Positions 19,931-47,762 of a DNA stretch of 64,000 nt are shown piece by piece; position 1 is the first letter of the stretch, and the number at the start of each line of letters is the position of its first letter. The notes beneath the pieces were generated by a model. It saw nothing but the letters and a program-made list of their open reading frames with translations. It did not search any database and was not told where the DNA came from. The stretch lies in the sequence record PP763259.1, one strand, 5' to 3'. The DNA is from Acinetobacter phage Ab15. The position numbers and the translations under genes are program-made.

Positions 19931-21175
19931 ATGGAACAACTTGTTTTAAATATTAATAAAGTCCCTGTTGTGGAAGCATCTCAATTTAAATACTCAGACC
20001 ATATTTTTGTTTCAGTTAATGGTCAATTTAAAAGAATGAAAAGAACTGATCTCATTACCTTATTGAGTGCTGATGTTAAGGGTGAAAAAGGTGAGAGAGG
20101 TCCGATTGGTTTACAAGGTAGGACTGGAGCTACAGGTGCAACTGGTGCCACAGGAGCTACAGGTGCAACTGGAGATAAAGGCGATAAGGGAGATCGTGGA
20201 GATCGTGGTTTCCGAGGATGGTCACCAGTCTTCAAATCAGTGGCTGAAGATGGTTCTATTTACCTATACTTAAGTGATTGGGTTGGTGGTGAAAATACAA
20301 AACCTGATGTTCTAGGTTATATCTCACCTACAGGGATTGTAAACTATATCACTGAGGGCGCAACTGCAATCAACACTGACTTTGCACCACAAATCAATGA
20401 CCTTCAAGCAAATAAACTAGACGTTGGCTCTACAACTAGTGCTATCCCTGAAGGTTCAAACTTGTATTATACAGATGCAAGAGTTCGTGATGTAATCCTT
20501 ACAGATCTCTCTACAGCGACCTCTACAGCTATTGTAGCGACAGATACTGTATTAAGTGCATTTGGCAAGGCACAGGCTCAACTTAACCTTAAACAGAACA
20601 GTTCAAGCTTAGGAACAGATGTACAAGCTACAGTTCTATCTACTTACACCGTTGGTGGTAATACAGAAATTGCCAACACTGACACCATAGCAGCAGCTTT
20701 TGGTAAAGCTCAAGGGCAAATTAATGCTAGACAACTTTCAGCCAATCTTTCATCTGATGTTCAGGCTTTAGTACTTTCAGGTTATGTTGTTGGTTCTAAC
20801 ACAGCTTTAGCCAATACAGATACTTTCATTGCTGCTCTTGGCAAGTTGCAAGGTCAGATCAATGCCAGAGAGGTAGCTGCCAATGTACCAGCAGATGTTA
20901 GGGCAACAGTTCTTACAGGTCTTTCTACAGCAAGTTCTACAGCAATTACTGCTACAGATACTGTCTTGTCAGCCTTCGGGAAATTACAAGCCCAAGTCAA
21001 CTTGAAACAAGACTCATCTACCCTAGCTGCAAATGTAAGATCAACAACCCTTACAGGTTTCTCTGCTACACCAAACTCAGCAGTAGTTGCAGCAGACACT
21101 ATATTGGCAGCAATAGGAAAATTACAGGCTCAAGTTGATAGTTTATCTTCTAGAGTAACAGCACTAGGAGGATAA
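19931..21175 (+). CDS. collagen-like tail fiber protein with internal ~42-aa repeats
   Basis: Gly-X-Y run GEKGERGPIGLQGRTGATGATGATGATGATGDKGDKGDRGDRGFRG (nt 20081..20218). C-terminal 2/3 consists of at least 5 divergent repeats ...TDTVLSAFGKAQAQLNLKQ... Confidence 0.6.
   Translation: MEQLVLNINKVPVVEASQFKYSDHIFVSVNGQFKRMKRTDLITLLSADVKGEKGERGPIGLQGRTGATGATGATGATGATGDKGDKGDRGDRGFRGWSPVFKSVAEDGSIYLYLSDWVGGENTKPDVLGYISPTGIVNYITEGATAINTDFAPQINDLQANKLDVGSTTSAIPEGSNLYYTDARVRDVILTDLSTATSTAIVATDTVLSAFGKAQAQLNLKQNSSSLGTDVQATVLSTYTVGGNTEIANTDTIAAAFGKAQGQINARQLSANLSSDVQALVLSGYVVGSNTALANTDTFIAALGKLQGQINAREVAANVPADVRATVLTGLSTASSTAITATDTVLSAFGKLQAQVNLKQDSSTLAANVRSTTLTGFSATPNSAVVAADTILAAIGKLQAQVDSLSSRVTALGG
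20081..20218 (+). repeat. 9-bp (GGn-GCn-ACn) collagen-like tandem repeat inside tail fiber gene
   Basis: ggtgcaactggtgccacaggagctacaggtgcaactgga... encoding (G-A-T)n and G-D-K / G-D-R triplets. Confidence 0.7.
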
Positions 21176-22804: not shown

Positions 22805-25576
22805 TTATTGACAGTTATCACATTCTTCATGTCGCTTAATATCACCAGATCCCCTCATAGAGTAGATGTAGTATAAAGCTAAGATACCTGCATTTTCCAA
22901 AGCATATTTGTGAACCTTCATAATATACTCTGGAGTGTCATTACTTGTAAAATACAAGTTGATTGACTGTTGCTGATCAATATATTGTTGTCGTTGTGCA
23001 CACAAATCCAAATGTTTGATCATGTCAATCTCAAAGGCAGTTCTAAAGACATCCTTCTCATGCTGAGTCAACCAGTGAACATGTTGTACAGAACCTTTAT
23101 GCTTATTGATGTCATTGATTACGTCTTCATTGTAAACACCACGTTCCTTCATGATCTCTAGAAGGACCTTATTAACCCTCCAGATATCTCCTCCAGCACT
23201 CTGCTTAACGAACACCATAGCAACATCTAAACCAATACCTTCAGAAGCACCAGCCATAATCTCTGCTGTTGACTTTGTAGGTGGCATCATCATCGTTGTT
23301 GCATTACGGATTCCTAAATGAGCGCACCCTTCAGGCATACCAACTTCACGAGCCAACCACTTAGAAGCAGCTAAGGTTTGATCTCTCATACCCTTAAAGA
23401 TTTCTTCATTTAACCAGAAGCTCTCAAGGCTACCTACCACAATTCTACGTTTTTGTAGTAGTGTGTGGAAACCTAATACACCTGTACCAACTGCACGGAA
23501 TCTCTTGGTGAAGGCTAAGATTTTTCTAAATGCCAAGGCATCCTCTTTACCTTGCTTAGTTCGGTTTTCCATAAACTCGATGTAGTCACTCACATTACAA
23601 TCTTGCATTACATGTGCAATAAATGCTAAGTGAGGACATCTCGATTTCCACTCATCGTATAAGTCAAGGTTCAAGTTCAGAATTACACAAGAGAATGTAT
23701 GCTTCTCATCACTACCAAGTAACACTTCTTGGCAATTCATAGTATTCAAACCATTGAACATCAACATGTTACGTTTTGGCTCAAGTGCACAATATGTATC
23801 ATCAAATCTTCCTTGGTCGATCACTTCATCAACACATACAAATCTTTCAGCAGAACGTTGAGGTTTTCTTTCACTCCATTTTAGGCGGTGTGTTTTTAAA
23901 CCTAACTGACTCAACTTAAAGAGACCTGTACTCGATACAAGAAGACGATAAGCATCTTGGCATTCAAACAGTCCTTTATCACCCGTACCATTATTGAGAG
24001 GTAATTCTTTTAGACCACCTACATCCCTCAAGACAACCTTTGAAGAAACACCAAGTGTTTGTAACATCAATTGCACATCTTGTAAGAATGTCTTGTGAAT
24101 GCTTACCACTTGGATAGATTCATTTTCACCATTACGAGCAATAGTTCCATCTGAATCTAGGAGTCCAGCAAACCATTCCAATCGGCTTTCAACAGTGTAC
24201 TCAGATGTTGGTACAAAGAATTTATCCTTAAGTCCTTCACTGTGAGTAAGCTTAATACGATCACCACCTTGAAGTCCTGACACTGAAGAAACGCAAGTTA
24301 TATTTTCAAGTAACTCCTTCTTCTTACCATACAAGTATGTGTGTTTTTTACCTTTGTATTCAAAACCATCACCAGTGAAGAATCCATTAGTGTAAGCATG
24401 TTCGAGGGTCTTGTCACCTAAAATAACTGGTAGATCAAATTTAGATAGTCGATCACCAGACTTCAACTCGTAGGCACGTTTAATGACCTCATTGCCATCC
24501 TCACCAACAACCTTAAAGCGGTGATACTCTGTGCAATCTAATTCATACCCTGAATCAGTTACCACTTTAACTAACTTCTGATTTTCACCAGTTTTGATAA
24601 TTGTCACTTCAGACCATTCAAAACCATTCCACACCTCGACCTGTTGTCCCTCAAGGTCAGAAATCGTTTGATATCCACTTTTAGTTAAGATTAATGTCTC
24701 AGGTGAAACACACAAATTAGAAGCTTTCGCTGTCATACCTGCATCTTTAAATGCCTGAGCTAAGTGGCGGTTCATTTCATCAATCTTAGTGAAGTAACCC
24801 TTACCACGTTGCATCTTGATAGCAATAGCTTTAGCTAATAGGGCAACTGCTTCTGGGTCATCCTTGACTAACTTCTCAATGTACTCGTCCTTACATAACC
24901 ATGCTGGGTTATTACTTTCAGGTCGTTTGAATAAGTACTTTAAAACTTCCTCAAACTCGGGATGTTCAATACTTACAGCATAAGATAAACTACCTCTACG
25001 GCTACCTTGAACAACCTCATCCATACAGTTGATTAAGTCACGGATAAGAGGCATAACCCCACCACTGTAACCACCACGAGGTAGTTTCTTACCTTTATAG
25101 GCCCAATCATCAATTGAGTAAGATGTACCATGTGAGTGCTTAGTTAGGATAGCTGCTTCAGTCACACAATCATAACGAGAGAACAAGTCATCACCAACAT
25201 AACCGCTAGCACAACTTACTGTTGATCCCCTTTCAGGTAAACCACTGTTCGCCAATAAAGGAGTTGAACAAGACACATAACCATCCCAAAGTACGTCAAA
25301 AAACACCTCCTCCCAAGTTTTACCAGCCGTATAAGTATCCACATTCCACCAAGAAGGGTACTTATCTGGTGCATGTTTAGCTAAAGTCTTAGCAATCATT
25401 TTATAGCGAGCTTTTACAGTCTCACCATTCCACGAATACTTTTCAAAGAACAACTGAGTCCCACCAGTGGTAAACCATTTAGGGATCTCTCCATGTTCTT
25501 GTAGTTTTTTTCGAAGTTGACTGTAACTGTCAACCCCGTATAATTCCAATGTCTCTAAATAAGATAAAACAGCCAC
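22805..25576 (-). CDS. nrdA: ribonucleotide reductase large subunit (class I NrdA-like) interrupted by an intein
   Basis: Extein motifs VSCSTPLLANSG, SNL-[intein]-CQEVLL...FSCVILNLNL match the NrdA SNLCxEI...LCxLxxxNL active-site region. Mature extein length about 597 aa, no ATP cone. Confidence 0.8.
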   Translation of the reverse strand: MAVLSYLETLELYGVDSYSQLRKKLQEHGEIPKWFTTGGTQLFFEKYSWNGETVKARYKMIAKTLAKHAPDKYPSWWNVDTYTAGKTWEEVFFDVLWDGYVSCSTPLLANSGLPERGSTVSCASGYVGDDLFSRYDCVTEAAILTKHSHGTSYSIDDWAYKGKKLPRGGYSGGVMPLIRDLINCMDEVVQGSRRGSLSYAVSIEHPEFEEVLKYLFKRPESNNPAWLCKDEYIEKLVKDDPEAVALLAKAIAIKMQRGKGYFTKIDEMNRHLAQAFKDAGMTAKASNLCVSPETLILTKSGYQTISDLEGQQVEVWNGFEWSEVTIIKTGENQKLVKVVTDSGYELDCTEYHRFKVVGEDGNEVIKRAYELKSGDRLSKFDLPVILGDKTLEHAYTNGFFTGDGFEYKGKKHTYLYGKKKELLENITCVSSVSGLQGGDRIKLTHSEGLKDKFFVPTSEYTVESRLEWFAGLLDSDGTIARNGENESIQVVSIHKTFLQDVQLMLQTLGVSSKVVLRDVGGLKELPLNNGTGDKGLFECQDAYRLLVSSTGLFKLSQLGLKTHRLKWSERKPQRSAERFVCVDEVIDQGRFDDTYCALEPKRNMLMFNGLNTMNCQEVLLGSDEKHTFSCVILNLNLDLYDEWKSRCPHLAFIAHVMQDCNVSDYIEFMENRTKQGKEDALAFRKILAFTKRFRAVGTGVLGFHTLLQKRRIVVGSLESFWLNEEIFKGMRDQTLAASKWLAREVGMPEGCAHLGIRNATTMMMPPTKSTAEIMAGASEGIGLDVAMVFVKQSAGGDIWRVNKVLLEIMKERGVYNEDVINDINKHKGSVQHVHWLTQHEKDVFRTAFEIDMIKHLDLCAQRQQYIDQQQSINLYFTSNDTPEYIMKVHKYALENAGILALYYIYSMRGSGDIKRHEECDNCQ
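23735..24712 (-). mobile_element. intein (326 aa) with LAGLIDADG homing-endonuclease domain inside nrdA
   Basis: Begins CVSPETLILTKSGYQ (block A). LAGLIDADG-type motifs NGFFTGDGF and LEWFAGLLDSDGTI. Ends ...MLMFNGLNTMN followed by +1 Cys, which is the catalytic Cys of the NLC(x)E motif. Penultimate His replaced by Met. Confidence 0.8.
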
Positions 25577-25586
25577 AAATACCTCC

Positions 25587-26150
25587 TTACTTACTTCCTT
25601 GTAATCCTTTATTCTCTTCTGAATCTTCCATGATCAGCTTCAAGAGTTCTTCTTGTTCCTCTTGTTCTTTCTTCCTCATATTATTCCAAGCTTCTACAAA
25701 CATAGCCTCAGACCAGTTACTTTCATACTCTCGGTTTTGACCCTTAGTGAAGAAATCTGGCATCTGGTAACCGTATGTATTTAAGTTAAACATCTTAGCC
25801 ACTTTAGAATCCTTCTGAGTAACTTGAAACTCTTTAGGGATTTTATCTACAGGAACCTGCAAACGAGTCAAGAAAGTAAAGATTCGGAAGCGCACAAAAT
25901 CAATGTACTCGGCTGTTGTATACCCATTAAGTGAACCTGAAGGGATTGCCATATCAATGATTCGCTTCTCATGCTCTAACACGTAGTGGCAAGCTTGTAG
26001 TAACTTTCCAAACATTTCTTCATGCTCATGTAGAGGTTTCCCTACTTCATGGAAATAGGTGTTAAAATGTTCTGCGGCGTAAATTCCATGCAACATGGGT
26101 TGTTCAGGTGTGCTCGTTACACACACCCCGTAGAGTACTTCACCACTCAA
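25587..26150 (-). CDS. nrdB: ribonucleotide reductase small subunit, C-terminal exon (exon 2)
   Basis: 187-aa ORF with no ATG at its 5' end (track start is TTG). In-frame stop 13 codons upstream. Continues the ferritin-like fold begun in 26539..27306. Confidence 0.65.
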   Translation of the reverse strand: MSGEVLYGVCVTSTPEQPMLHGIYAAEHFNTYFHEVGKPLHEHEEMFGKLLQACHYVLEHEKRIIDMAIPSGSLNGYTTAEYIDFVRFRIFTFLTRLQVPVDKIPKEFQVTQKDSKVAKMFNLNTYGYQMPDFFTKGQNREYESNWSEAMFVEAWNNMRKKEQEEQEELLKLIMEDSEENKGLQGSK

Positions 26151-26538
26151 GTACTCACAGCTTACACTTTCATGTAAGATCAGACTATATCATCACCACA
26201 AGGTTTTACTTGTTGTGGTGCTTCCCACTTCGGTCTTACTTAAGACCTACTCCCCGAAGGGATAGTCGTTGAGGATTCTAAACCTAATTCCAACCACAAA
26301 GCTTTCCAACGTTTTTTATGCCTAATTAACGAAACATATCTAATGTATCCAGAAAATTTTGGATGTTTAAATTTTTCCATAATTACCTCCATAATAAGAG
26401 GTTGGAATTAGGTTTAGCTTTCCTGCTGATTGCCCAATACTTTAGATTTTTACTCAGTGTTTAAATTTTTCAACACTTCAGTACTAAAGTCTCTAAGGGG
26501 TTTCCAGCATTTCAAGAAGTTTATTGAGGACTTGCAAA
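26151..26538 (-). ncRNA. group I self-splicing intron (ORF-less) in nrdB; boundaries approximate to within 40 nt
   Basis: Minus-strand RNA contains R-like element CAACGACUAUC (fwd 26261..26271) and S-like element GAUAUAGUCUG (fwd 26181..26191), able to form P7 (GACUA/UAGUC). Also a CCCUUCGGGG tetraloop hairpin, a GGUCUUAAGUAAGACC hairpin, and a P9-like CUUACA-UGAAAG-UGUAAG hairpin just before exon 2. No ORF of 60 aa or more on either strand. Confidence 0.65.
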
Positions 26539-27306
26539 TTAATCCTCATCTAGTGCACTCTGGTTAGCAATTTGGGCAATAACTTTAATTAAGTTAAAAC
26601 CATTTGTCTGGAAGCTCTTAAGGATAGCAAAACTAGAGAACAACAAAGCTGTCTCTGTTAAAGAGAAGCACAAGCATGCAAGCATCTTGTTTTCATCTCG
26701 CATTAAACCATCTAACCATTCCATACGTTCATTGAGTACAGGGTCATCAATGTATGATGTGTAGTAATCATCAGTATCTAGTCCAAGTACAATGTTAATC
26801 TCATTGTACGTTCGTGCATGGACCATCAACTCAATCATTGCTAAAGCAGAAGCACCAGCACGGGATTCATGTCGAGGGAATACTTTAATGAATAATCCAT
26901 TCCAGAATTCATCACCAACAATTAATTCATACTGTAAGAATAAGTGTAGAACTGTTTTTACTGCATGTAGTTGCTCTTTAGTTAGCACATACTCAAGTTC
27001 CATCTGGTCATTCTTGACTTCCATTTCACTCTTAAACCACATCTGCTCTTCAAGCTGCTGGTCAGCAATCTCAAGAATCTTTGGGTACTTAATCTCATAG
27101 CCACTATTGGGTGATGTAATACGGGTTTGCACTAATCCAGTTTTCTCTGAATTTAATGTTTTGTTTATTGTCACATAAACGAATTTCCCTTCAGGGTTTT
27201 TCTCATCCTTGACATTGATGATAACCTTTCCAGCCGGTGGTGGTAAAAATCTAATCTTCTCAACCTGACCTTCGGTTAAATCCACCTCAATATTAATTTT
27301 AGACAT
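26539..27306 (-). CDS. nrdB: ribonucleotide reductase small subunit, N-terminal exon (exon 1; stop codon lies just inside intron)
   Basis: Contains di-iron/tyrosyl-radical region ...SALAMIELMVHARTYNEI... (Ex2H + Tyr register of NrdB) and ...CLCFSLTETALLFSSF... (second Glu ligand helix). ORF ends where the NrdB helix with the RDExxH ligands should follow. Confidence 0.7.
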   Translation of the reverse strand: MSKINIEVDLTEGQVEKIRFLPPPAGKVIINVKDEKNPEGKFVYVTINKTLNSEKTGLVQTRITSPNSGYEIKYPKILEIADQQLEEQMWFKSEMEVKNDQMELEYVLTKEQLHAVKTVLHLFLQYELIVGDEFWNGLFIKVFPRHESRAGASALAMIELMVHARTYNEINIVLGLDTDDYYTSYIDDPVLNERMEWLDGLMRDENKMLACLCFSLTETALLFSSFAILKSFQTNGFNLIKVIAQIANQSALDED

Positions 27307-27385: not shown

Positions 27386-27862
27386 TTATTTACGTTTAAT
27401 TCTTGCACTGGTAATTCGAGGTTTATCTGAAGAGCGATGATACTCAATTTCAAAACCCAACTCATTTAAGATGTCTGAAAATTCACGAGAGGTTAAATTG
27501 GAGTCAAACAATGGTACATCCTCACCATAATTCTTGACAACTTTAATACCTTGAATTTCCTTACGAGATACCTTTTCCAAGATTTCTTCACAAAATAACT
27601 TAGCGAATAAGTCACACAGTGTTTGTACTGCTGGTCGTTTCTCTGGGGTTCGAAAACCGTTCTGGTCCTCTAATGAGTGCCAACCCCACCAACGACCTTC
27701 ACCAATATCTGTTTGTGCGAATAAACTTCGAGTATTTCTTTTGTGATCCTGATAATGCCCAAGTCGCACAATAAAGTTATCTAGAGTATTCCCTGTCATG
27801 TCTACATAATTAGGACGTTTGGTAGGGTCTTTCTCTTGGACTTGGTTTACTGTTTCAATCAT
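27386..27862 (-). CDS. hypothetical protein, first gene of the minus-strand nrd transcription unit
   Basis: 158-aa ORF (…DIGEGRWWGWHSLEDQNGF…) with RBS. Function not recognised. Confidence 0.4.
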   Translation of the reverse strand: MIETVNQVQEKDPTKRPNYVDMTGNTLDNFIVRLGHYQDHKRNTRSLFAQTDIGEGRWWGWHSLEDQNGFRTPEKRPAVQTLCDLFAKLFCEEILEKVSRKEIQGIKVVKNYGEDVPLFDSNLTSREFSDILNELGFEIEYHRSSDKPRITSARIKRK

Positions 27863-28287
27863 ATAGTCTCCTTATGAATTGTTTACATAATATGTAGGGA
27901 TGTTATCTGGCACCTCTACAAGTTGAAGGTATTGTAGTATGAATTAAATTTATAAAACACCCCACACCTTTAGAAATTCTTAAAAGTTTACCTTGTTTGG
28001 TTGTTTGTTAAACACAACACAAAATAAAGGTAGAACCTAGAGGTTATCTTTAAATTTGTCACTAGGGGAAATCCTTCAGGGAATAAAAAAGGGCACCACC
28101 TTGAAGTAGTGCCCTAAAAAGTACCCTAGGGAATATTAATATATTAACCCCTGAGGAAAATTTTTTAAGTATCCTCTTATATTTATAGTACCCCAAAAAG
28201 TCATTTTGTCAAGCTAAAACCATGCCAATTAATCATTGGAAATTTCGATTAAAAATTAAATATTAGTAAATTCTGTAAAAAATACAT

Positions 28288-28307
28288 CAGACCGATTTGA
28301 TCAAATG
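28288..28307. promoter_or_regulatory. 20-bp direct repeat copy 1 (cagaccgatttgatcaaatg) containing palindrome ATTTGATCAAAT
   Basis: Identical copy at 28351..28370. Internal 12-bp perfect palindrome with central GATC. Confidence 0.6.
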
Positions 28308-28350
28308 CATTTTTTAAAAGTGAAAATAACCAGTTCAAAATGGTTTTAAC

Positions 28351-28370
28351 CAGACCGATTTGATCAAATG
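28351..28370. promoter_or_regulatory. 20-bp direct repeat copy 2 (operator/iteron candidate)
   Basis: Perfect repeat of 28288..28307, 63 bp centre-to-centre. Lies 47 bp upstream of the TTGACA at 28417. Confidence 0.6.
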
Positions 28371-28416
28371 TTCTAATAAGGTAATAAATAGGGTTTTAAA
28401 TATGTTTCTTTTTAAG

Positions 28417-28443
28417 TTGACAGAGAAAAAATTTTTTTATAAA
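28417..28443 (+). promoter_or_regulatory. sigma70-like promoter (TTGACA, 15-nt spacer, TATAAA) for 28493 gene
   Basis: gTTGACAgagaaaaaattttttTATAAAg, 50 bp upstream of the ATG. Confidence 0.45.
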
Positions 28444-28492
28444 GTTATCCACATCCAAAGATGGTTGATTGGTATAAGTAAGGAGAATTTTT

Positions 28493-29209
28493 ATGTTTAA
28501 AGGTTTTTTAACAGATGTAGCAAAAGAAGCTGGTGTTGGTCCTGCAATTCTTTTAAATCAGTTGCACCAATGGGTTAAGTCTACTGGAAACCAGAAGATT
28601 TACCGTTCTAATGCTCAATTATCTGAAGACCTTGATGGAGTTCTTTCAGTAGCAGCTATTCAACGTCATAAGGTAAAACTGATTGAATGTGGATACATTA
28701 TCGTTTCTCACGATAAAGGAACTATTCGTACTACTACTTACCAATTAACTGAGAAAGCTTTGAAATCTTTAGGTGCTTTCTTTGACAAAGCTAAAGACAA
28801 AGTTAAACAAGCCTTCCAACCTAAAAAACCTAAACAACAAGTTCCAGCACAACCTAAAGAGGAACCAGTAAAGCAAAGCACTGAGAAACCAACCTCTATG
28901 GAAGAAGAGTTTAAGAAAGCTGGTCAAGAACGTAAGGACCTCCCTAGAGGTTGCCCTAAAGAACTTCTTAAAGGTATCTTTATGAGTGCTAAGAAAGAAG
29001 AGGAAAAACAAGAAGATGTTGTTTATGAGGACAATTCTGAAGAGTTATTTGGAAAGAAATTCGAAAGTGAAGACTTGAGTGATGAAGAAATCTTTGATAA
29101 AATGAGTAAAACTCTTGGTGGTTTATTTAAGACTATCCCTAATGTGGATAAAAGAAATTCAAACCTTCAATCTATGACTAACTTTGGTAACTTTCGAGAA
29201 GAGTACTAA
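28493..29209 (+). CDS. putative winged-helix DNA-binding protein (replication initiator/early regulator candidate) with acidic/Lys-rich C-terminal half
   Basis: N-terminal 90 aa look like a wHTH fold (…KIYRSNAQLSEDLDGVLSVAAIQRHKVKLIECGYIIVSHDKG…). Positioned right after the repeat-containing control region. C-terminus low complexity. Confidence 0.35.
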   Translation: MFKGFLTDVAKEAGVGPAILLNQLHQWVKSTGNQKIYRSNAQLSEDLDGVLSVAAIQRHKVKLIECGYIIVSHDKGTIRTTTYQLTEKALKSLGAFFDKAKDKVKQAFQPKKPKQQVPAQPKEEPVKQSTEKPTSMEEEFKKAGQERKDLPRGCPKELLKGIFMSAKKEEEKQEDVVYEDNSEELFGKKFESEDLSDEEIFDKMSKTLGGLFKTIPNVDKRNSNLQSMTNFGNFREEY

Positions 29210-29241
29210 GGCTTATTGATTAATAATCGGAGAAATCGATA

Positions 29242-29865
29242 ATGACTAAACATAAAATCGGAAAACCTGATTTCTGTCAGAATTATCCTGAATTAAATAA
29301 AGCTTTTGAGGAAGAGCTTCAGAGTCTATGCCGTGAAGAAGACGAACAGACTGTGAACATTAGGAAAGCTTTCGAAAATTTCAAACAATTCCTAACACAA
29401 GCTATTTATGGGACCACTGAGTGTGTAGACCCTAGAGTTCGTGTGTTGGCACAGGCTGGATATGGTTTTGGTACTAAGAATTGGCGTTTTTATTATGAAG
29501 ATATTTTAGAAAATGCTCTTGAGTATGCCCGTGAAAAACTGAGTGCTGATGAGTATGAAGATGTTCGTGCAATGAAGGAAACTTTCTTAGGTGAGGACTT
29601 GATAGAGCAGCACTGTCAAGATATGCTAAGAGAATTTTACGGATATGATTACAAAGTTTATTGTTCAGAGTTTTACCGCTACTTTATACGAGATATGAGT
29701 TTAGTTGAAGAGGCTTATTTCTTTACTTTTGCAAATGTTGCTGGTTGGGGTGTTTGGTTTATTGTTAAATTACTTATTGGTATTCCTTGGGCAATTCTAG
29801 TTTTTGTACTTTATGTAGTTTTTGGAGGCTTGGAAAGGATTTATAATATTCTTTTTAAAAAGTAG
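29242..29865 (+). CDS. hypothetical protein with C-terminal transmembrane segment
   Basis: 207 aa. C-terminal WGVWFIVKLLIGIPWAILVFVLYVVFGG. Confidence 0.4.
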   Translation: MTKHKIGKPDFCQNYPELNKAFEEELQSLCREEDEQTVNIRKAFENFKQFLTQAIYGTTECVDPRVRVLAQAGYGFGTKNWRFYYEDILENALEYAREKLSADEYEDVRAMKETFLGEDLIEQHCQDMLREFYGYDYKVYCSEFYRYFIRDMSLVEEAYFFTFANVAGWGVWFIVKLLIGIPWAILVFVLYVVFGGLERIYNILFKK

Positions 29866-29894
29866 TTGACATTATTTTCTACCTGATCTAATAT
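29866..29894 (+). promoter_or_regulatory. sigma70-like promoter (TTGACA-17-TAATAT)
   Basis: agTTGACAttattttctacctgatcTAATATac upstream of 29963 gene. Confidence 0.55.
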
Positions 29895-29962
29895 ACACAC
29901 ATCAGGTAGAAGGTATAGATACCTAAAAATTAATAAACGAGATATCCTAAGAGGAAACTTAA

Positions 29963-30454
29963 ATGAAAGCGATTGTTAGTTCATCTTTAAAGGCACAAGA
30001 AGTTCGCTCTAAGCGTGAAAACTTGGAGTTTAAATCAAATGGGACTACGTTGTATCGTTCACTTGAAAAAATGTTCAAGATTCGTGATGCACTTGCTGAT
30101 GCTAAAGCAACTATTGCTGAAGTAACTGGTGAGAAATACATGATCGTTACAGCCGATGAAGCGATCAGTATTTATGAAAATAACAAATCATCATTTACAA
30201 GTTTTACTTTTGTAAAGATTTCTGATTGCACATTACGTACAATTTCTACTCGACAAACTGATATTGGTGTGTCTGGCACTGCTCGTCCAAGTAAAAACAA
30301 AGATCAATATAATGTCTTTGATACTAACTTGGCTAAGAAAATGATCAAAGAAGGTCGTAAAGAAGAAGTTGAAAGTGGTGGTGCATGGCGTTCATTTAAC
30401 AAGAAATCACTTGTTAGTATGCGACACAATGGTATAACTTATTTGATTGCATAA
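29963..30454 (+). CDS. hypothetical protein
   Basis: 163 aa, RBS gaggaaac. Confidence 0.4.
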   Translation: MKAIVSSSLKAQEVRSKRENLEFKSNGTTLYRSLEKMFKIRDALADAKATIAEVTGEKYMIVTADEAISIYENNKSSFTSFTFVKISDCTLRTISTRQTDIGVSGTARPSKNKDQYNVFDTNLAKKMIKEGRKEEVESGGAWRSFNKKSLVSMRHNGITYLIA

Positions 30455-30533
30455 GTTAAAGAATCAATTAAAACTTAGAAATTAATTTAACAAGAGTCAT
30501 CCAAAAGGTGCTCTTGTTTTTCGTCTTTATAAA

Positions 30534-30846: not shown

Positions 30847-32883
30847 GTGCAATATGAAGGATTCAAAATAAAAGGTGGAACTTACCAAAATTTTGATGTG
30901 AGTGATTTAGATTTTAGCCATGAACACAAAACAACCTGCCCTAAATGTAAATCTAAAGGTAAGGACCGTTCTGGGAATAACTTTCATATTTACTCTCCAG
31001 ATGAATTAGGTAGACCGAGTGGTGGTAAGTGTTGGGCTGCTGGTTGTGGATTTCGTATCTTAAGCGCTGAAATTATCGGTGAGCTAGAGGCTACAGGAAA
31101 TGGTCATGGTAAATATGAGTTAACAGAAGAGGAAAAAGCTGAATTAAAGACACAACAGCTTTTAAGGAAATCTCAAAGGAATAAGGAGAAGGCATTGGAA
31201 AAGGCATTATCTAGGGAAGATTTTTTGTCGATTTGGCAAAGCACTGGATCTGACCCTAAAGGTTGGAGAGGTTTGACAAAAGAAACCTGTGATGATTTAA
31301 AAATCCGATTCCGATATAATGAGGATGATGGTAAGCCAAACTCAATGTTGGTCCCAACCTTTATGCCTATGGAGGATGGCGCTAAGGCTGTACCAGTGGG
31401 TTATAAGATTCGAGTATTCCCTAAAGACTTCTCTCATTCAGTTGGTGCTTTTGGTAAAGCTACTGATTTGATTGGTATGGCAAAATTCCACAGCCATAAC
31501 AAAACTTTAGTGATTACTGCTGGTGAAGTTGACTGGGCTTCAGCTTATCAGATGTACAAGGCTAAGAAACCTGAACGTTATATTCCAGCTATTGCAACCT
31601 CACCACTGGGTGAAGAGGGAACCTTACAGCACTTCTTGGAGAACCCTAGAAACTATGAGTTCTTCATGCAGTTTGATAAGGTTATCTTGTGCTTAGACTC
31701 TGATGATGCTGGCTTAAAGGCTATGGAATCATTTGCCGAGAAGATGCCTAGAGAGAAGCTTTGGAAGGTTCAACTACGTTACAAAGATGTAAATGAGTAT
31801 CTTGTACAAGGTAAGTATCAAGAGTTTGTCGATGATGTTGAGTTTAAGGCCAAACCATGTCATGATTCCTTGATCATTGGTTCTGGTGGTTGGCAAGTTG
31901 CCATTAAGCGTGAAATTAGTGTGGAGAAGTTGCAATTACCTCCAATGTTGTGTAGACTAGAGAAATCTATAAAAGGTGGTTTCCCAATGGGTCGTATTGT
32001 AACCATTGGTGCAGCAAGTTCTGCTGGTAAAACCACCTTAGTAAACTCGATGATTTATTACTGGTTGGGTTTAAGAACACATAAAATCGGTATTGTATCT
32101 TTGGAGTTAACCTTTGGTCAATACTGTATGGATATGCTGTCACGACATGTTGGTAGAAAAATTGATGCATTTGAGACAGTTAAGGAACAACAAGATTTCT
32201 TAAATCGTCCAGATGTGATTGATGCTGCAAATGATTTCTTCTACAATGAAGATGGAAGTGATAGATTCTGGGTGGTTGATAACCGAGATTCAAACATTGC
32301 AGAGATTCAACGTCTGTGTGAACAGATGGTTATCCAACATGGAATTAATGTTCTTATCTTAGACCCAGTTTCAGACTTAACACAAAAACTTGATAAAGAA
32401 AAACAAGTTGAGTTTGCTTCTTGGCAAAAGAGTTTTGTTAAGAAACATAATGTCTTGATGATTCAAATTTCACACGTTCGTAAAACAGGAAATGGTCAAA
32501 AGAGTTATGCTGAAGGTGCTGTACCTACAGAAGATGACTTGATTGGATCATATGCTGTTGGTTCATCTAGTGCGTGTACCATTATGCTTGCACGTAATAA
32601 GATGAGTGATAACCCACGTGTACGTAATACCACAGGTGTTTATGTTCCAAAGTGTCGTTGGAGTCCAGTTACAGGTCACTTGGATGATATTTACTACGAT
32701 CTAGAGACACACCGATTGCACAATCTAGAGCAATGGGATTTGGGTATTGTCGATACTGGACAGAAGCTCTTGTTAGATGAAGACCTAGATACAAAAGGTG
32801 ATGATCAAGATCATGTTTGTGCTGATGAGCAGGAATCTGTGTATGCATCATCAAGTGATGTAACTCAATTGTTTAGTGAGTAA
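30847..32883 (+). CDS. DNA primase/helicase (T7 gp4-like: zinc-ribbon + TOPRIM + DnaB-family helicase)
   Basis: GTG start after aaaggagg. Cys4 zinc ribbon CPKCKS...GGKCWAAGCGF. Walker A GAASSAGKTT in C-terminal RecA-like domain. Confidence 0.8.
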   Translation: MQYEGFKIKGGTYQNFDVSDLDFSHEHKTTCPKCKSKGKDRSGNNFHIYSPDELGRPSGGKCWAAGCGFRILSAEIIGELEATGNGHGKYELTEEEKAELKTQQLLRKSQRNKEKALEKALSREDFLSIWQSTGSDPKGWRGLTKETCDDLKIRFRYNEDDGKPNSMLVPTFMPMEDGAKAVPVGYKIRVFPKDFSHSVGAFGKATDLIGMAKFHSHNKTLVITAGEVDWASAYQMYKAKKPERYIPAIATSPLGEEGTLQHFLENPRNYEFFMQFDKVILCLDSDDAGLKAMESFAEKMPREKLWKVQLRYKDVNEYLVQGKYQEFVDDVEFKAKPCHDSLIIGSGGWQVAIKREISVEKLQLPPMLCRLEKSIKGGFPMGRIVTIGAASSAGKTTLVNSMIYYWLGLRTHKIGIVSLELTFGQYCMDMLSRHVGRKIDAFETVKEQQDFLNRPDVIDAANDFFYNEDGSDRFWVVDNRDSNIAEIQRLCEQMVIQHGINVLILDPVSDLTQKLDKEKQVEFASWQKSFVKKHNVLMIQISHVRKTGNGQKSYAEGAVPTEDDLIGSYAVGSSSACTIMLARNKMSDNPRVRNTTGVYVPKCRWSPVTGHLDDIYYDLETHRLHNLEQWDLGIVDTGQKLLLDEDLDTKGDDQDHVCADEQESVYASSSDVTQLFSE

Positions 32884-35685: not shown

Positions 35686-35911
35686 TGGTTATGAACTGAA
35701 GGTTGGTCAATTGGTTATCTGTGCAGAACAGAAGACAGCAGATTTCTTTCATGGTAAAATTACACAGATTAACGAAAAGACTGTTATTGTAGAAACACAT
35801 CGGGAAAACTACAAGTACCACAAATACTCTAAACCAGTGACTGGCTATGTAACTCACCCAAGACGACCTGAACAAGTATTTGTTTTAGGAAGCCCTAAAG
35901 AATTAAATTAA
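35657..35911 (+). CDS. hypothetical small protein
   Basis: 84 aa, overlaps previous gene. Confidence 0.35.
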   Translation: MRYIEMKSINGYELKVGQLVICAEQKTADFFHGKITQINEKTVIVETHRENYKYHKYSKPVTGYVTHPRRPEQVFVLGSPKELN

Positions 35912-35940
35912 AAATTCTTTAAAATATTTTATAAAAGTAG

Positions 35941-35969
35941 TTGACATGGTGTTTTAATTATGATTTAAT
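35941..35969 (+). promoter_or_regulatory. sigma70-like promoter (TTGACA-17-TTTAAT)
   Basis: agTTGACAtggtgttttaattatgaTTTAAT in 250-bp AT-rich gap before the SSB gene. Confidence 0.45.
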
Positions 35970-36167
35970 TAGCACAATAAATTAATAATAAATATATTAC
36001 CTACCTTAGATGTGCAACACATCATATTTTTAGGAAGCCTCTAGGCAAGCCAGAAAGAAAAATGGAGAAGACAAGTTTTATTTAAGTCAGGACGACTATA
36101 ATTAAGCGACTTTACGTCTTTTTCGCAAAACATATCTTAAAAGTATTTACTAAAAGGAGTTTACTAA

Positions 36168-43671: not shown

Positions 43672-44057
43672 TGTCTGAGGATGTACATACACGTTCTTAT
43701 AGTGATGCAGTAGAGCACATGCATAAGTGTGAGAATGCTCTACTGGAGGCCATTAACAATGTATTTGAAGAGTACTCCAAGATGAATTACTTCTTGGATT
43801 CCTATTTGAATATGTCAGAGGCATTGAAACAAATTAAGAGTGATTTCAATGTCTTAATTGATAAGGTAAATAATTTTAACTTTTCTTTTGAAAAAGTGTT
43901 GACAAAGAATTTTTCTATTGGTAAAGTATGCTACATATTAAGGGCGAAAGCCAAAATAGATAAGACATCTGGTTTAACAAAGATTGACACTTTCAGTGTT
44001 TTTAAGATAAACTTGGATGGTTCTCAGTCGATAGTTTTAGCGGGAGATTGGTTATGA
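43671..44057 (+). CDS. hypothetical protein
   Basis: 128 aa, ATGTAATG coupling with phoH. Confidence 0.4.
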   Translation: MSEDVHTRSYSDAVEHMHKCENALLEAINNVFEEYSKMNYFLDSYLNMSEALKQIKSDFNVLIDKVNNFNFSFEKVLTKNFSIGKVCYILRAKAKIDKTSGLTKIDTFSVFKINLDGSQSIVLAGDWL

Positions 44058-44826: not shown

Positions 44827-45399
44827 ATGACACGTTTAAATACTCAATATGTTGAAACTGAAAACACTGGTAAGTTAAAAGTTGGTGATGTTGTTGAAAT
44901 CTTAAATACAGAAGAATTCCATGATGGTGCAAAAGTTGGTGATCGTGCTGTTGTTCTACAAATTCGAACTATGCCAATCATGGGATTACGATTCGCTGTA
45001 TTAGGTTATGAAGTGGAAGGTTTTGACCACCTTGTATTCCGAAACATTGATTTTGAAGACTTTGAAGATGAAGTTAAATTCTTAGGTCGTCAAACAGATG
45101 CACATGAATTCCAAACCAAATACCTTGAAAAGTTAGGTGCTACAAACATCCGTGTTCTTGATCTTGCAGGTTTTGCCGAAGATTATGTAGAGCAAAATGC
45201 TGTTTACCCTCTAGTTGGTGCTGCATTGAAACCTACAATCAAGTGGGTTGAAAGCGAAGATAAAGGTCTTGTTGATGCTGTAACTGGTTGGGAAGCTGAT
45301 ACTGATGAAGATGGTGATGTTCTTGTGTTCCAACTTGAAGATGGTAACATCCAGTACACTCAGTTAGATGGAGGTGTTGAGTTAGCTTTAGCTAGTTAA
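44827..45399 (+). CDS. protein with N-terminal KVGD-repeat small-barrel domain (same family as the 56-64 kb array) plus acidic C-terminal domain
   Basis: N-terminus KLKVGDVVEILNTEEFHDGAKVGDRAVVLQI shares the double KVGD motif. Confidence 0.45.
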   Translation: MTRLNTQYVETENTGKLKVGDVVEILNTEEFHDGAKVGDRAVVLQIRTMPIMGLRFAVLGYEVEGFDHLVFRNIDFEDFEDEVKFLGRQTDAHEFQTKYLEKLGATNIRVLDLAGFAEDYVEQNAVYPLVGAALKPTIKWVESEDKGLVDAVTGWEADTDEDGDVLVFQLEDGNIQYTQLDGGVELALAS

Positions 45400-45426
45400 T
45401 TCAATTAAATAACTGATTAAAGAATG

Positions 45427-45451
45427 CCCCAACATTGTTTGGGGTTTTCTT
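45427..45451 (+). terminator. rho-independent terminator (ccccaa cattgt ttgggg ttttctt)
   Basis: 6-bp GC-rich stem + T tract, 28 nt after stop of 44827..45399. Confidence 0.65.
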
Positions 45452-45477
45452 GTAGTTTAACTTGACAGGAGGTCATT

Positions 45478-45882
45478 ATGGAAGTACGTGTAAAAAGCTC
45501 TTTGGCGCCTAGCTTTGGTGTTAAAGATACCAGTGGGTCTGTGGGTTGTGAAGCTCCAGTAGCAATAGGCAATGGTTTAAGTGGGGGTACAATTAAATCT
45601 GATGGGGGTTCCTCAACATATTACGACATTGCATTGCCTGATGGATTACTCGATGAGCTAATTCGAAGAAAGCAAGATGAAGGACAATCTTATATTAAAA
45701 CTGAAGAGATCATCGAACTAGGTCTTGGAAATGATTTTGATGCTGGAAATATCTTCAAGTGTTTAATTCGAATGCAATCCTTAAAGAATGGTAAAGGTAA
45801 GGCTGGAAATGACTTAGAGTATGATGCTAACAAAGTTGTTTATTCTGCCAAAAAAATAGCAAAACGCTATTCTAAAAAATGA
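45478..45882 (+). CDS. hypothetical Gly/Ser-rich protein
   Basis: 134 aa, RBS caggaggt. Confidence 0.4.
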   Translation: MEVRVKSSLAPSFGVKDTSGSVGCEAPVAIGNGLSGGTIKSDGGSSTYYDIALPDGLLDELIRRKQDEGQSYIKTEEIIELGLGNDFDAGNIFKCLIRMQSLKNGKGKAGNDLEYDANKVVYSAKKIAKRYSKK

Positions 45883-46232
45883 TTTCACATGTTATTATCT
45901 CTCAAAAGATAACCTTTGAGAGATTTTTTATGACTATGCGAAAAGAAGATGGTGGGATTGACTACCTACTTGCCTCTTTGTTTTTATTATTGGGGTTTGT
46001 TTTAGGTGCTCTATTTCTTGCCTACCAAAACACTCAGTTTATGAAGAATGAGATGTATACAGATTGTGCTAAGGTAGGATTTTATGAGATCTATCCAGAT
46101 AAGGGTAAAGGTGTATACTGTACCATAGCAAAGTACGAGAAAGAGCACACTGAATACACTACTTACAAGGTTTTTAAAGATGATGGTGAGTTGTTTGCTA
46201 CCCTTCGTGAAGATTTAGGAGAGAAGAAATGA
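45879..46232 (+). CDS. hypothetical membrane protein
   Basis: 117 aa with one TM helix (LLASLFLLLGFVLGALFLAY). Confidence 0.4.
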   Translation: MISHVIISQKITFERFFMTMRKEDGGIDYLLASLFLLLGFVLGALFLAYQNTQFMKNEMYTDCAKVGFYEIYPDKGKGVYCTIAKYEKEHTEYTTYKVFKDDGELFATLREDLGEKK

Positions 46233-46711
46233 AAGTTTATCACAGCAGTAAAGATCACACTTGGGAAACACCTCAAGAATTATTTGACAAGTTGAATAAT
46301 GTGTTTAACTTTAAAACGGATGTGTGTGCATTACCTGAAACAGCTAAGTGTAATGAATACTTCACACCCGAAGTGGATGGGTTAAAACAAGATTGGGTTG
46401 ATGTTTGCTGGTGTAATCCTCCTTATGGTAGGATGCAAAAAGACTGGATTAAAAAGGCTCGTGATGAAGCCTTGAAAAACGATGCAACCGTTGTGATGTT
46501 GATTCCAGCTAAACCAGATACAAAGATTTGGCACGATGTAATCTTTAAGGATTATTCAGCAGTTTGTTTTATTAAGGGAAGATTGCGTTTTGGTAGTGCT
46601 AAAGAAAATGCACCTTTTCCATCTGCTATTGTTGTTTTTGGAAATGTTACTAGCAAGCAAATAGAAACATTAAGCAGTTTTGGTTACACAATAATTAAGG
46701 AGAAACATTAA
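46229..46711 (+). CDS. small DNA N6-adenine methyltransferase (phage Dam family, NPPY motif)
   Basis: WCNPPYG catalytic motif IV. 160 aa is typical of the minimal phage Dam (PF05869-type) enzymes. Confidence 0.55.
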   Translation: MKVYHSSKDHTWETPQELFDKLNNVFNFKTDVCALPETAKCNEYFTPEVDGLKQDWVDVCWCNPPYGRMQKDWIKKARDEALKNDATVVMLIPAKPDTKIWHDVIFKDYSAVCFIKGRLRFGSAKENAPFPSAIVVFGNVTSKQIETLSSFGYTIIKEKH

Positions 46712-47226
46712 TGCACATTCAGAAAGGTAAACTTCGCTTTAATAAGCGAGAGTTGTGGAACTTAGATAAACACCTTGCTAAAGTTATTGTTCAGGGGTTA
46801 CAACAGTTCAAGAGTGTCCACAAGAACACCATCCCACCACACTTAGTCACTGAGGATATTAACCCTGAAACTGGTAGAGAGGTTTATTGGGATTATTCGA
46901 GTGAGTATTGTGATGAACAATGGCAAGAGTTATTAGATAAGATGATCTTTGCGTTTACAGAGCATCCCACATACTTTGATATTGAACCTTATGATTTCCA
47001 CTATGATGATTTAACACACCCTGAAAAGTTTCCTGAGCAAGTGTGGGAAGAGCATCCTGTTTATGGTAAGATAACAGAGTGGAGACAGGTGCTAAAAGAA
47101 GGTGTTACACAAGAAGATGTAGATGCTTGGTGGGAACGTAGTCGAGCTTACGATGCTGAGATTAAACGCAAAGTGGATGAAGGGCGAGAGTTATTCATTA
47201 AACATTTTGATAGCTTGTGGGACTGA
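46711..47226 (+). CDS. hypothetical protein
   Basis: 171 aa, ATG overlapping upstream stop. Confidence 0.4.
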   Translation: MHIQKGKLRFNKRELWNLDKHLAKVIVQGLQQFKSVHKNTIPPHLVTEDINPETGREVYWDYSSEYCDEQWQELLDKMIFAFTEHPTYFDIEPYDFHYDDLTHPEKFPEQVWEEHPVYGKITEWRQVLKEGVTQEDVDAWWERSRAYDAEIKRKVDEGRELFIKHFDSLWD

Positions 47227-47256
47227 GATATACAACACTATTGAGGAGGGTCAAGA

Positions 47257-47460
47257 ATGAATTTTGGTTGGTATGAAATTATGGATCGTATTTCTGTTAT
47301 TCAGAATGCGTTAGAAGATAATGTAAGAAATCATCAAGAAGTTGATGAAAAGTTACAAGAGTTAGTTGATTCTGCACAAGAGATGTTATGTAAAGCATAT
47401 CAACATGCTGCGAGTCAATGGGATGAGAGTTGTAGAGATTTTGAGGATGGGTGTAAATGA
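47257..47460 (+). CDS. hypothetical small acidic protein
   Basis: 67 aa. Confidence 0.3.
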   Translation: MNFGWYEIMDRISVIQNALEDNVRNHQEVDEKLQELVDSAQEMLCKAYQHAASQWDESCRDFEDGCK

Positions 47461-47762
47461 GTAAGAAAATTCCATGTGAAGAAATTCAGAGGTTAAAACG
47501 AGCTAACTTTTGGTTGTGTAGAGATAGAGTTAAAGTTAAGAATCTTATGAGAGAGAAACTTGCTCGTGTTGTTGAGTTAAACAAGTCAATGCAACAGATG
47601 GCTTATAGTTCTCTTAAAGAATGTACAAAACAAAGAAACAAACTTATTGATGAACACTCTTTGCTGATTGATTTGTATGTGAGGATTAACCAAGATATTT
47701 ATGACAATGGTGTTAAGATTATGAAGCTCAGAAATGGTCTAAACAAGGACGTGTCTAAATAA
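47457..47762 (+). CDS. hypothetical protein
   Basis: 101 aa. Confidence 0.35.
   Translation: MSKKIPCEEIQRLKRANFWLCRDRVKVKNLMREKLARVVELNKSMQQMAYSSLKECTKQRNKLIDEHSLLIDLYVRINQDIYDNGVKIMKLRNGLNKDVSK

Follow-up and report, generated by a model that had tools for sequence, protein, structure and literature searches.

Paired 20-bp direct repeats before a winged-helix gene in Acinetobacter phage Ab15: a putative replication control region

The largest intergenic region in a 64,000-nt stretch of the Acinetobacter phage Ab15 genome (PP763259.1; the whole stretch is called the window below) holds two identical 20-bp direct repeats. They lie upstream of gene 28493, whose product, gp28493, is a winged helix-turn-helix (wHTH) protein and the first one encoded in a module that also contains a primase/helicase and a DNA polymerase. 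Judging from the sequence comparisons below, we put at about even the chance that these 20-mers are iteron-type sites for gp28493, in a stretch that controls the replication module and probably serves as the origin. A preliminary description of this DNA had proposed that the repeats serve a dimeric DNA-binding protein, either as an operator pair or as replication-origin iterons. That is still the best reading, although a putative one, and it is strengthened by two observations: 20–22-bp repeat arrays in distant phages, and a concerted change of both repeat copies among close relatives.

The window belongs to the group of Acinetobacter baumannii myophages that includes AM24, Mithridates, Bestia, Herod, YMC13/03/R2096 (R2096 below) and P577, which are unclassified Caudoviricetes and have been named ‘cluster 13’ (PMC11126041). 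AM24 and its relatives, with genomes of ~97 kb, are under development for therapy while their replication module is annotated almost wholly as ‘hypothetical protein’, and we found no description of an origin or of iterons in these phages in the literature. The present analysis contributes a probable initiator (gp28493), a probable origin or rep-control region (the gap at 28.2–28.5 kb), and, in Saclayvirus and cluster-14 phages, homologous genes preceded by probable iteron arrays in the corresponding position. These could serve annotation, provide a map for origin studies and for engineering (safe insertion sites, minimal replicons), and help to follow the mosaicism around the site.

A direct repeat pair in the sole divergent junction

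Both repeats lie in a 630-bp gap (27863–28492) that is not only the largest intergenic region but also the sole divergent junction of the window. To its left the genes run leftward (a 158-aa open reading frame (ORF), an intron-containing nrdB and an intein-containing nrdA), and to its right they run rightward (28493, three small ORFs, the primase/helicase at 30847–32883 and DNA polymerase A), in agreement with the leftward nrd unit and rightward replication unit described before. Gene 28493 begins ~120 bp downstream of the repeats. The elements concerned are:

28288–28307, + strand: repeat copy 1 (c1), CAGACCGATTTGATCAAATG, exact match, with the palindrome ATTTGATCAAAT at 28295–28306
28351–28370, + strand: repeat copy 2 (c2), the identical 20-mer, exact match, with the palindrome at 28358–28369
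28308–28350, no strand: spacer, 43 bp, AT-rich, carrying the conserved CCAGTTCAAAATGGTTTT; its length is invariant in relatives
28493–29209, + strand: gp28493, 238 aa, with an N-terminal winged helix (residues ~7–95), a disordered linker and C-terminal helices

The perfect direct repeats and the perfect 12-bp palindrome within each copy were thus both found as first described. The 20-mer occurs as two exact copies in the same orientation, with no further match at up to three mismatches in the 64 kb, and none of 100 shuffles yielded two matches to it. A search for copies elsewhere in the genome, suggested in the preliminary description, was also run on the ~33 kb of AM24 that lie outside the window, where no extra copy was present at up to four mismatches. 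While 12-bp palindromes as such are unremarkable (22 in the window, about as many as composition predicts), local direct repeats of at least 16 bp number only two in the window, the other one being coding: a 27-nt (9-codon) tandem repeat at 20126–20172 inside a 414-aa ORF (19931–21175). Outside the 20 bp the flanks of c1 and c2 are unrelated, which gives the repeat unit sharp borders.

From the start of c1 to that of c2 is 63 bp, which at 10.5 bp per turn makes 6.0 helical turns (63 also equals 3 × 21). The two copies therefore lie on the same face of the helix, and the earlier placement of one copy on each face was wrong. Their dyad centres, at 28300.5 and 28363.5, fall at about −151 and −88 from the predicted transcription start near 28452. 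Relative to the leftward −35 they are upstream by more than 85 bp, and there is no overlap with either promoter. By composition, the least stable 200-bp duplex of the 64 kb is 28248–28447, which spans c1 and c2, and the flanks at 28227–28286 and 28370–28430 rank among the top 0.2–0.8% for low stability.

Several other roles for the 20-mer or its core were considered and rejected. There is no sign of a regulon of the core motif, as its weaker matches (29093, 36692, 44653, 51685 and 58605) all lie in coding sequence. Nor does the palindrome make a promoter: TTGATC is a possible −35, but in the window it has no acceptable −10 at 16–18 bp. Comparison with IHF, FNR, Fur, CRP and LexA-type consensuses gave no convincing match. 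A pac site resembling the TGATCA repeats of P1 was set aside because the terminase gene is far off (29039–30469 in AM24) and there are two copies only. Finally, a hairpin between the two palindromes, in single-stranded DNA or in RNA, folds no better than shuffled sequence (z = −1.3).

Tandem arrays at the homologous loci of distant phages

Homologues of gp28493 with 30–54% identity were recovered by tblastn from Saclayvirus (TAC1, Acibel004, phiAbaA1 and others), from vB_AciJM_313 (AciJM_313 below) and from cluster 14 (B9, TaPaz, Ab3 and phiAB441). In the six phage records examined, the homologue is the first gene after an intergenic region of 230–500 bp. We tested nine distant loci and the window for periodicity, scoring matches at offsets of 18–24 over 88 bp against 500 shuffles. 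A periodicity of 20–22 bp was significant (P < 0.002; 0 of 500 shuffles) in five of the nine distant loci, namely TAC1, Acibel004, phiAB441, AciJM_313 and the metagenomic locus L025.

The clearest layout is that of TAC1 (L014, 2286–2395), where five TCCATnTTTCG... units follow one another at exactly 22 bp. Arrays of 22 bp are also found in Acibel004 (L016, ~270–378), phiAB441 (L018, ~2291–2380) and L025 (~1225–1315). AciJM_313 (L015, 2313–2392) has 20-bp units, CAGTGATTCATTTTGATAA (CAGTGrTTCATTwTG...), that resemble one of the two repeat alleles of the close relatives (allele B, below), along with the palindromes TTGATCAA and AATGATCATT. All these arrays sit just upstream of the same AT-rich element, promoter and gp28493 homologue. 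Going by their sequence and position, these previously undescribed arrays in other Acinetobacter myophage lineages are probably iteron arrays.

Comparison of the distant and the close loci gives a family-wide order of lineage-specific direct repeats, AT-rich element, promoter and wHTH initiator-like gene. Measured against this order, the lineage of the window seems to have a reduced form, in which two full units are separated by three periods and the spacer keeps CAGTTCA, a motif that lies within CCAGTTCAAAATGGTTTT and is the left half of the allele-B repeat.

gp28493, a winged-helix protein with initiator-like homology

The wHTH-like nature of gene 28493, noted in the preliminary description, is borne out by two lines of evidence that agree. 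First, an AF2 model of the N-terminal domain (helices 15–31, 40–46 and 53–66; strands 35–37, 69–73 and 81–85; pLDDT mostly above 90) shows the canonical H1-(b1)-H2-H3-b2-wing-b3 topology with a recognition helix, followed by a low-confidence linker and then C-terminal helices. Second, a profile built from the 56 homologues returned by an exhaustive search matches the MarR-type wHTH of AdcR (2.5e-6). A fold search meant to tell initiator from regulator gave generic wHTH matches only: in Foldseek against the PDB the MarR family came first, with DnaD-N at rank 34 and a plasmid Rep–DNA complex at rank 36.

Homology over the rest of the protein points elsewhere. gp28493 is assigned to phrog_20659, and its weaker PHROG matches, which span most of the protein, are to families labelled ‘replication initiation protein’ (PHROG 11233, 2.1e-9, residues 5–194), ‘replication initiation O-like’ (PHROG 678, 1.6e-7) and ‘DnaD-like helicase loader’ (PHROG 6493, 8.6e-7), and to a further initiator family (4.2e-6). 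Among curated models, no Pfam or NCBIfam entry passes its cut-off for gp28493, RepC-N appearing only below threshold in Pfam. The homologues themselves match RP-C (10 members), HTH_36 (6) and DnaD_N (4) in Pfam, and some depositors have named them DnaD or replication initiation protein. From this remote homology and the gene context, with no curated family to name it, the most consistent reading of gp28493 is that of an initiator or loader.

Two repeat alleles among close relatives

The close relatives compared comprise eleven distinct genomes or contigs, in which gp28493 is 79–98% identical. Mean identity differs by part (c1 75%, spacer 82%, c2 84%, AT-rich element 93%, promoter 95%, 5′ untranslated region 93%), such that everything from c2 rightward is almost invariant and c1–spacer–c2 is the more variable stretch. 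All of them space c1 and c2 63 bp apart, despite substitutions in the spacer. Positions 11–13 and 18–20 of the 20-mer are constant in all 13 sequence variants, and TTTGATCAAATG is retained in at least one copy in most genomes. The better-kept copy is c2, which is intact or has at most two changes in 10 of the 11 genomes and is degenerate only in Mithridates, and every genome compared has at least one good copy.

Two alleles of the 20-mer were seen, A (CAGACCGATTTGATCAAATG) and B (CAGTTCATTTTGATCAAATG), which differ at positions 4, 5, 7 and 8 (AC.GA versus TT.AT). Allele-A genomes have A in both copies and allele-B genomes have B in both; in allele B the palindrome is 10 bp, and in the relative L012 the repeat is again perfect and there 21 bp long. 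Four identical substitutions in both copies cannot have arisen by independent drift. Two genomes depart from this pattern: Mithridates is an A/B recombinant, with allele A at c1 and allele B at c2, and Bestia combines a B-like spacer with allele A at c2. The preliminary description took absence or variability of the repeats in close relatives as evidence against their function, and the outcome here is mixed, since they do vary, but non-randomly.

We looked for covariation between protein and site and rejected it, as the wHTH hardly varies and gp28493 and five neighbouring proteins have no column that separates A from B. Co-evolution is consequently unusable as evidence for binding, and a second specificity factor could account for a concerted A/B switch with no matching change in protein.

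This pattern also bears on the idea that the pair has no sequence-specific binding function and is a by-product of local recombination, gene conversion or homing-endonuclease mosaicism. Within the intergenic region, variability is highest across c1, spacer and c2, where the sequence is visibly mosaic (as in Mithridates and Bestia), HNH genes stand beside c1 in five genomes, either copy can decay, and no neighbouring protein covaries with the allele, all of which would be expected of such a by-product. It would not, however, explain the invariant positions and the mostly retained TTTGATCAAATG, the sharp repeat borders with unrelated flanks, the fixed spacing, or the recurrence of related motifs and arrays before the homologous gene at 30–35% protein identity. 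Moreover, conversion between 20-bp tracts 63 bp apart is mechanistically unlikely without selection. We therefore hold a pure by-product to be rather improbable.

The HNH insertions are of interest in their own right. A gene of ~200 aa, which the Bestia and Herod annotations call an HNH homing endonuclease, lies directly left of c1 in five relatives (L003, 3859–4467; L005, 3850–4458; L007, 2139–2747; L009, 2149–2754), at a point equivalent to ~28255–28287 of the window. What was once c1 has become degenerate in Bestia, Herod and the metagenomic L007, where it provides the HNH gene with its −35 TTGACA. L009 has an intact c1, and on the minus strand 17 bp separate its TTGATC from TATATT. The homing target may be the border of c1. 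As the insertions always fall left of c1, the unit of c1, spacer, c2, promoter, DnaA box and gene stays contiguous.

Searches for additional relatives added little: a metagenome scan with a conserved 30-mer found no further ones, and a protein scan of viral contigs found only R2096.

Promoters, AT-rich element and DnaA boxes

From left to right the gap holds a minus-strand terminator, the leftward promoter, the two repeats, the AT-rich element, the rightward promoter and a DnaA box. These elements, and a second DnaA box within gene 28493, are:

28115–28080, − strand: strong intrinsic terminator, 11-bp stem plus T-run; fold z = −4.65; only sub-threshold Rfam matches
28185–28212, − strand: leftward sigma-70-type promoter TTGACA-16-TACTAT, the other arm of the divergent region; conserved in relatives
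28371–28416, + strand: AT-rich element TAATAAGGTAATAAATAGGGTTTTAAATATG... before the −35; 93% mean pairwise identity in 11 relatives
28417–28445, + strand: sigma-70-type promoter TTGACA-17-TAAAGT of the rep-like gene and replication module; 10 of 12 consensus matches; unchanged in every close relative
28445–28453, + strand: perfect DnaA box TTATCCACA, abutting the −10 and covering the predicted start of transcription; found in 11 of 11 close relatives
29143–29151, − strand: perfect DnaA box (TGTGGATAA on the + strand) in the 3′ portion of gene 28493; 9 of 11 relatives have it

The repeats thus do lie in a divergent control region, between two opposed sigma-70-type promoters, and the TTGACA promoter reported downstream of them is present and conserved. 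A TTGACA promoter stands at the equivalent position in TaPaz, phiAB441 and Ab3, and the AT-rich element is recognisable in the cluster-14 and AciJM_313 loci.

The AT-rich element is probably an UP-like promoter element. Elsewhere in the window, a second TTGACA-17-TAAAGT at 43899 (region 43854–43927) is preceded by ATAAGGTAAATAATTTTAAC...TTTCTTTT, which resembles the element before the 28417 promoter, and the likeness suggests that the two promoters share a class.

The 64 kb contain no more than two perfect TTATCCACA boxes, a pair flanking gene 28493; the chance of two such boxes within 800 bp in 64 kb is ~0.018, in a test made post hoc. The upstream box is 75 bp from c2 and is absent in the distant lineages. 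The downstream box overlaps the conserved codons N-V-D-K, so that coding constraint may explain its retention.

With two divergent promoters around them, the repeats could also be purely transcriptional: operators or enhancer-like sites for these promoters, with a regulator looping between sites on the same face and with no role in replication. The regulator might be gp28493, autoregulating in the manner of MarR, or else some other protein of the phage or a factor from the host. Such a function would suit the palindromic core of each copy, the phasing at 6.0 turns, the MarR-family repressors that are the nearest PDB kin of the wHTH, and an adjoining AT-rich element that behaves as a promoter element. 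It fares worse on position, as the dyad centres at about −88 and −151 overlap neither promoter, and the leftward promoter can be moved: an HNH insertion shifts it ~650 bp from the repeats, which means that it is not tightly coupled to them. In addition, direct-repeat arrays of 20–22 bp like those of the distant kin are typical of iterons, not of operators, and the homology of gp28493 beyond its wHTH is to initiator and loader families. On balance, an exclusively transcriptional role seems unlikely to us.

The leftward arm has a feature of its own, in that the terminator lies ~65 nt past the leftward promoter (region 28212–28076, − strand). This arrangement could be either a small RNA of ~100 nt or a terminator/attenuator in an nrd-operon leader of ~315 nt. 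No Rfam family reached its threshold in a search of the intergenic region.

A possible mechanism and the points against it

If the repeats are iteron-type sites, the binding partner, DNA melting, helicase loading and autoregulation that we infer might fit together as follows. Dimers of gp28493 would bind the dyad core TTTGATCAAA and the adjacent ATG of each copy, both on one face of the helix, and could interact over the 43-bp AT-rich spacer by bending or looping it. The resulting distortion, together with transcription from the 28417 promoter and perhaps host DnaA at TTATCCACA, would open the neighbouring AT-rich DNA, whereupon the C-terminal helices of the initiator would recruit the phage primase-helicase (30847–32883). 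As happens in iteron plasmids, the rep promoter may in turn respond to how far these sites are occupied. The repeats, the easily melted AT-rich flanks, the strong early promoter and the DnaA box would together control the module and probably constitute the phage origin.

A number of observations weigh against iterons here. First, the window has two copies only, its own locus shows no significant 20–22-bp tandem periodicity (P = 0.76), and neither do four of the nine distant loci (TaPaz, Ab3, L024 and L026). Second, whole 20-mers are conserved no better than the adjacent non-coding DNA (75 and 84% versus 82–95%). Moreover, c1 is degenerate in Bestia and Herod, both isolated phages, and in L007, and c2 is degenerate in Mithridates, so two intact copies are dispensable. 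Third, as no column separates the alleles, co-evolution with gp28493 does not explain their concerted change. Fourth, the function labels of the PHROG families are computational, and the nearest PDB neighbours of gp28493, by structure as well as by sequence, are MarR-type transcription factors, of a fold that is generic. Finally, the recurrence of the AT-rich element at the 43899 promoter argues for a role in transcription rather than in unwinding.

GATC cores and a Dam-like gene

In both window copies GATC is the dyad centre, and these are the only two GATC sites between 27745 and 29885. The preliminary description had linked this core to a small Dam methyltransferase gene of the phage. The gene is indeed of the Dam family: ORF 46229–46711 matches Pfam Dam (PF05869) at 5e-29, above the cut-off, and has an NPPY motif, although its TIGR01712 score is below the cut-off (78 versus 97 bits). 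Characterised members of the family (T1, HP1 and VT2 Dam) methylate GATC. Acinetobacter is not known to have a Dam/SeqA system.

The distribution of the gene is sporadic. Among 50,697 phage records, near-identical Dam-like genes occur only in Herod (100%) and the cluster-14 phage B9 (92%). AM24, Bestia, R2096 and P577 lack ~490 bp exactly at the Dam position, where Mithridates has other DNA. The Dam-like gene is an accessory cassette shared with B9. The region around it (window 45300–47500) is 100% identical to Herod over 2.2 kb, while the repeat region (27400–29300) is nearest to AM24 (98.3%) and is without Herod's HNH insertion, so that the genome is a mosaic.

The proposed coupling of repeats and methylase is not supported. 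AM24 has no Dam gene but the same repeats as the window, Herod has the Dam gene and has lost the GATC of c1, and GATC is missing from c1 in 5 of the 11 close relatives and from c2 in Mithridates. The absence of Dam from AM24 with its identical repeats, together with the frequent loss of GATC, refutes an obligatory coupling.

Spelled out in full, the preliminary proposal is a methylation-sensitive switch, with the phage Dam setting whether the two GATC cores are methylated and so controlling binding and, through it, an early/late or replication decision. It can call on the GATC at both dyad centres, on the PF05869 enzyme with its NPPY motif in the window, on the presence of at least one GATC-bearing copy in every close relative, and on the precedent of GATC-cored iterons in the RctB site WTGATCAT (PMC7174414). 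But five of the relatives named above are without the gene, the repeats of TAC1, Acibel004, TaPaz, phiAB441 and Ab3 have no GATC at all, GATC is not clustered at the site and is under-represented across the window (observed/expected 0.65), the enzyme scores below the TIGR01712 cut-off, and the host genus is not known to have Dam or SeqA. We regard a methylation switch of this kind as highly improbable and, as a conserved mechanism, largely refuted.

A milder effect, confined to the Dam-carrying isolates (the window and Herod), would be that methylation at the dyad-centre GATC retunes binding of the predicted initiator; this is a long shot. Were it true, a mobile methylase would have two jobs on a host with no known Dam, anti-restriction and an optional modulation of replication timing. 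By way of background, the GATC-containing origin motifs reported in one study (PMC7174414) are all from Dam-containing taxa, and the orphan adenine methylase of A. baumannii, AamA, targets TTTRAATTYAAA (PMC13201069).

Comparison with known origins and operators

The architecture proposed here is ordinary, being known from lambda ori/O, iteron plasmids and the origins of Staphylococcus pathogenicity islands (SaPIs); what is new is its recognition in this phage family. The lambda origin likewise has dyad-containing direct repeats with AT-rich DNA adjoining and a strong promoter near (transcriptional activation), and lambda O binds as a dimer through an N-terminal winged helix and recruits helicase by its C-terminal part; an O-like PHROG family is among the hits of gp28493. 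Lambda differs in having four closely spaced iterons inside the O gene, versus two copies 63 bp apart and upstream of the gene here. The homology between gp28493 and O is also remote (1.6e-7, to a family with a computational label), and the present phage has its own primase-helicase and polymerase.

Iteron plasmids (pSC101, F oriS, P1 oriR, RK2 and pPS10) share contiguous iterons (putative here), AT-rich DNA, DnaA box(es), a rep promoter and a rep gene (rep-like here), in addition to an iteron of ~20 bp and the 21–22-bp phasing seen here in the distant relatives, and autoregulation through the same sites is plausible here. On the other hand, their Rep proteins (RepA, RepE, pi) have two winged-helix domains, while gp28493 has one plus helices; the window has two full copies only; the order of DnaA box and iterons differs; and a lytic phage has no copy-number control or handcuffing logic. 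In SaPI origins, sets of initiator-binding repeats flank an AT-rich stretch beside rep/primase genes. There, however, the Rep that binds the iterons is itself a helicase, the origin is downstream of rep, and there is no sequence relationship.

For the methylation idea the nearest precedent is given by the RctB 11/12-mers of Vibrio cholerae ori2 and by P1 oriR, whose repeats have a TGATCA or GATC core (RctB WTGATCAT; PMC7174414). Their hosts have Dam and SeqA and their GATCs are conserved and clustered, whereas here Dam is sporadic and GATC often lost.

Another known analogue of a Dam-sensitive switch is the pap GATC pair. As for MarR repressors with paired palindromic operators, they offer the nearest folds and profiles for the wHTH, and palindromic sites as well. 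Nonetheless, gp28493 is without the MarR dimerisation helix bundle and has instead a long disordered linker and unrelated C-terminal helices, the sites overlap no promoter, and homology outside the wHTH points to initiators.

Other features of the window

GC skew was rejected as an origin marker: it flips only with gene orientation and is for that reason uninformative on the origin. A second non-coding gap, of 292 bp (35876–36167), includes the least stable 40–100-bp duplex segments of the window (35896–36010), and is another candidate, either as an origin or as a region of strong regulation.

In the leftward unit, nrdB is split into two ORFs (26539–27306 and 25587–26150) by a group I catalytic intron at 26161–26575 on the minus strand (Rfam RF00028, 54.9 bits versus a cut-off of 50). 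In R2096 the two nrdB ORFs are separated by an HNH endonuclease gene, and Herod nrdB is likewise annotated as two ORFs. The adjoining nrdA (22805–25576, − strand) encodes 923 aa in the window versus 597 aa in Mithridates, L010 and L012. In R2096 nrdA is annotated with an intein N-terminal splicing region and a LAGLIDADG domain, which indicates that the gene carries an intein.

Lastly, short palindromes are strongly avoided throughout the window, with observed/expected ratios of 0.07 for CCGG (one occurrence), 0.28 for CGCG, 0.46 for GGCC and, as given above, 0.65 for GATC, a pattern consistent with restriction avoidance.

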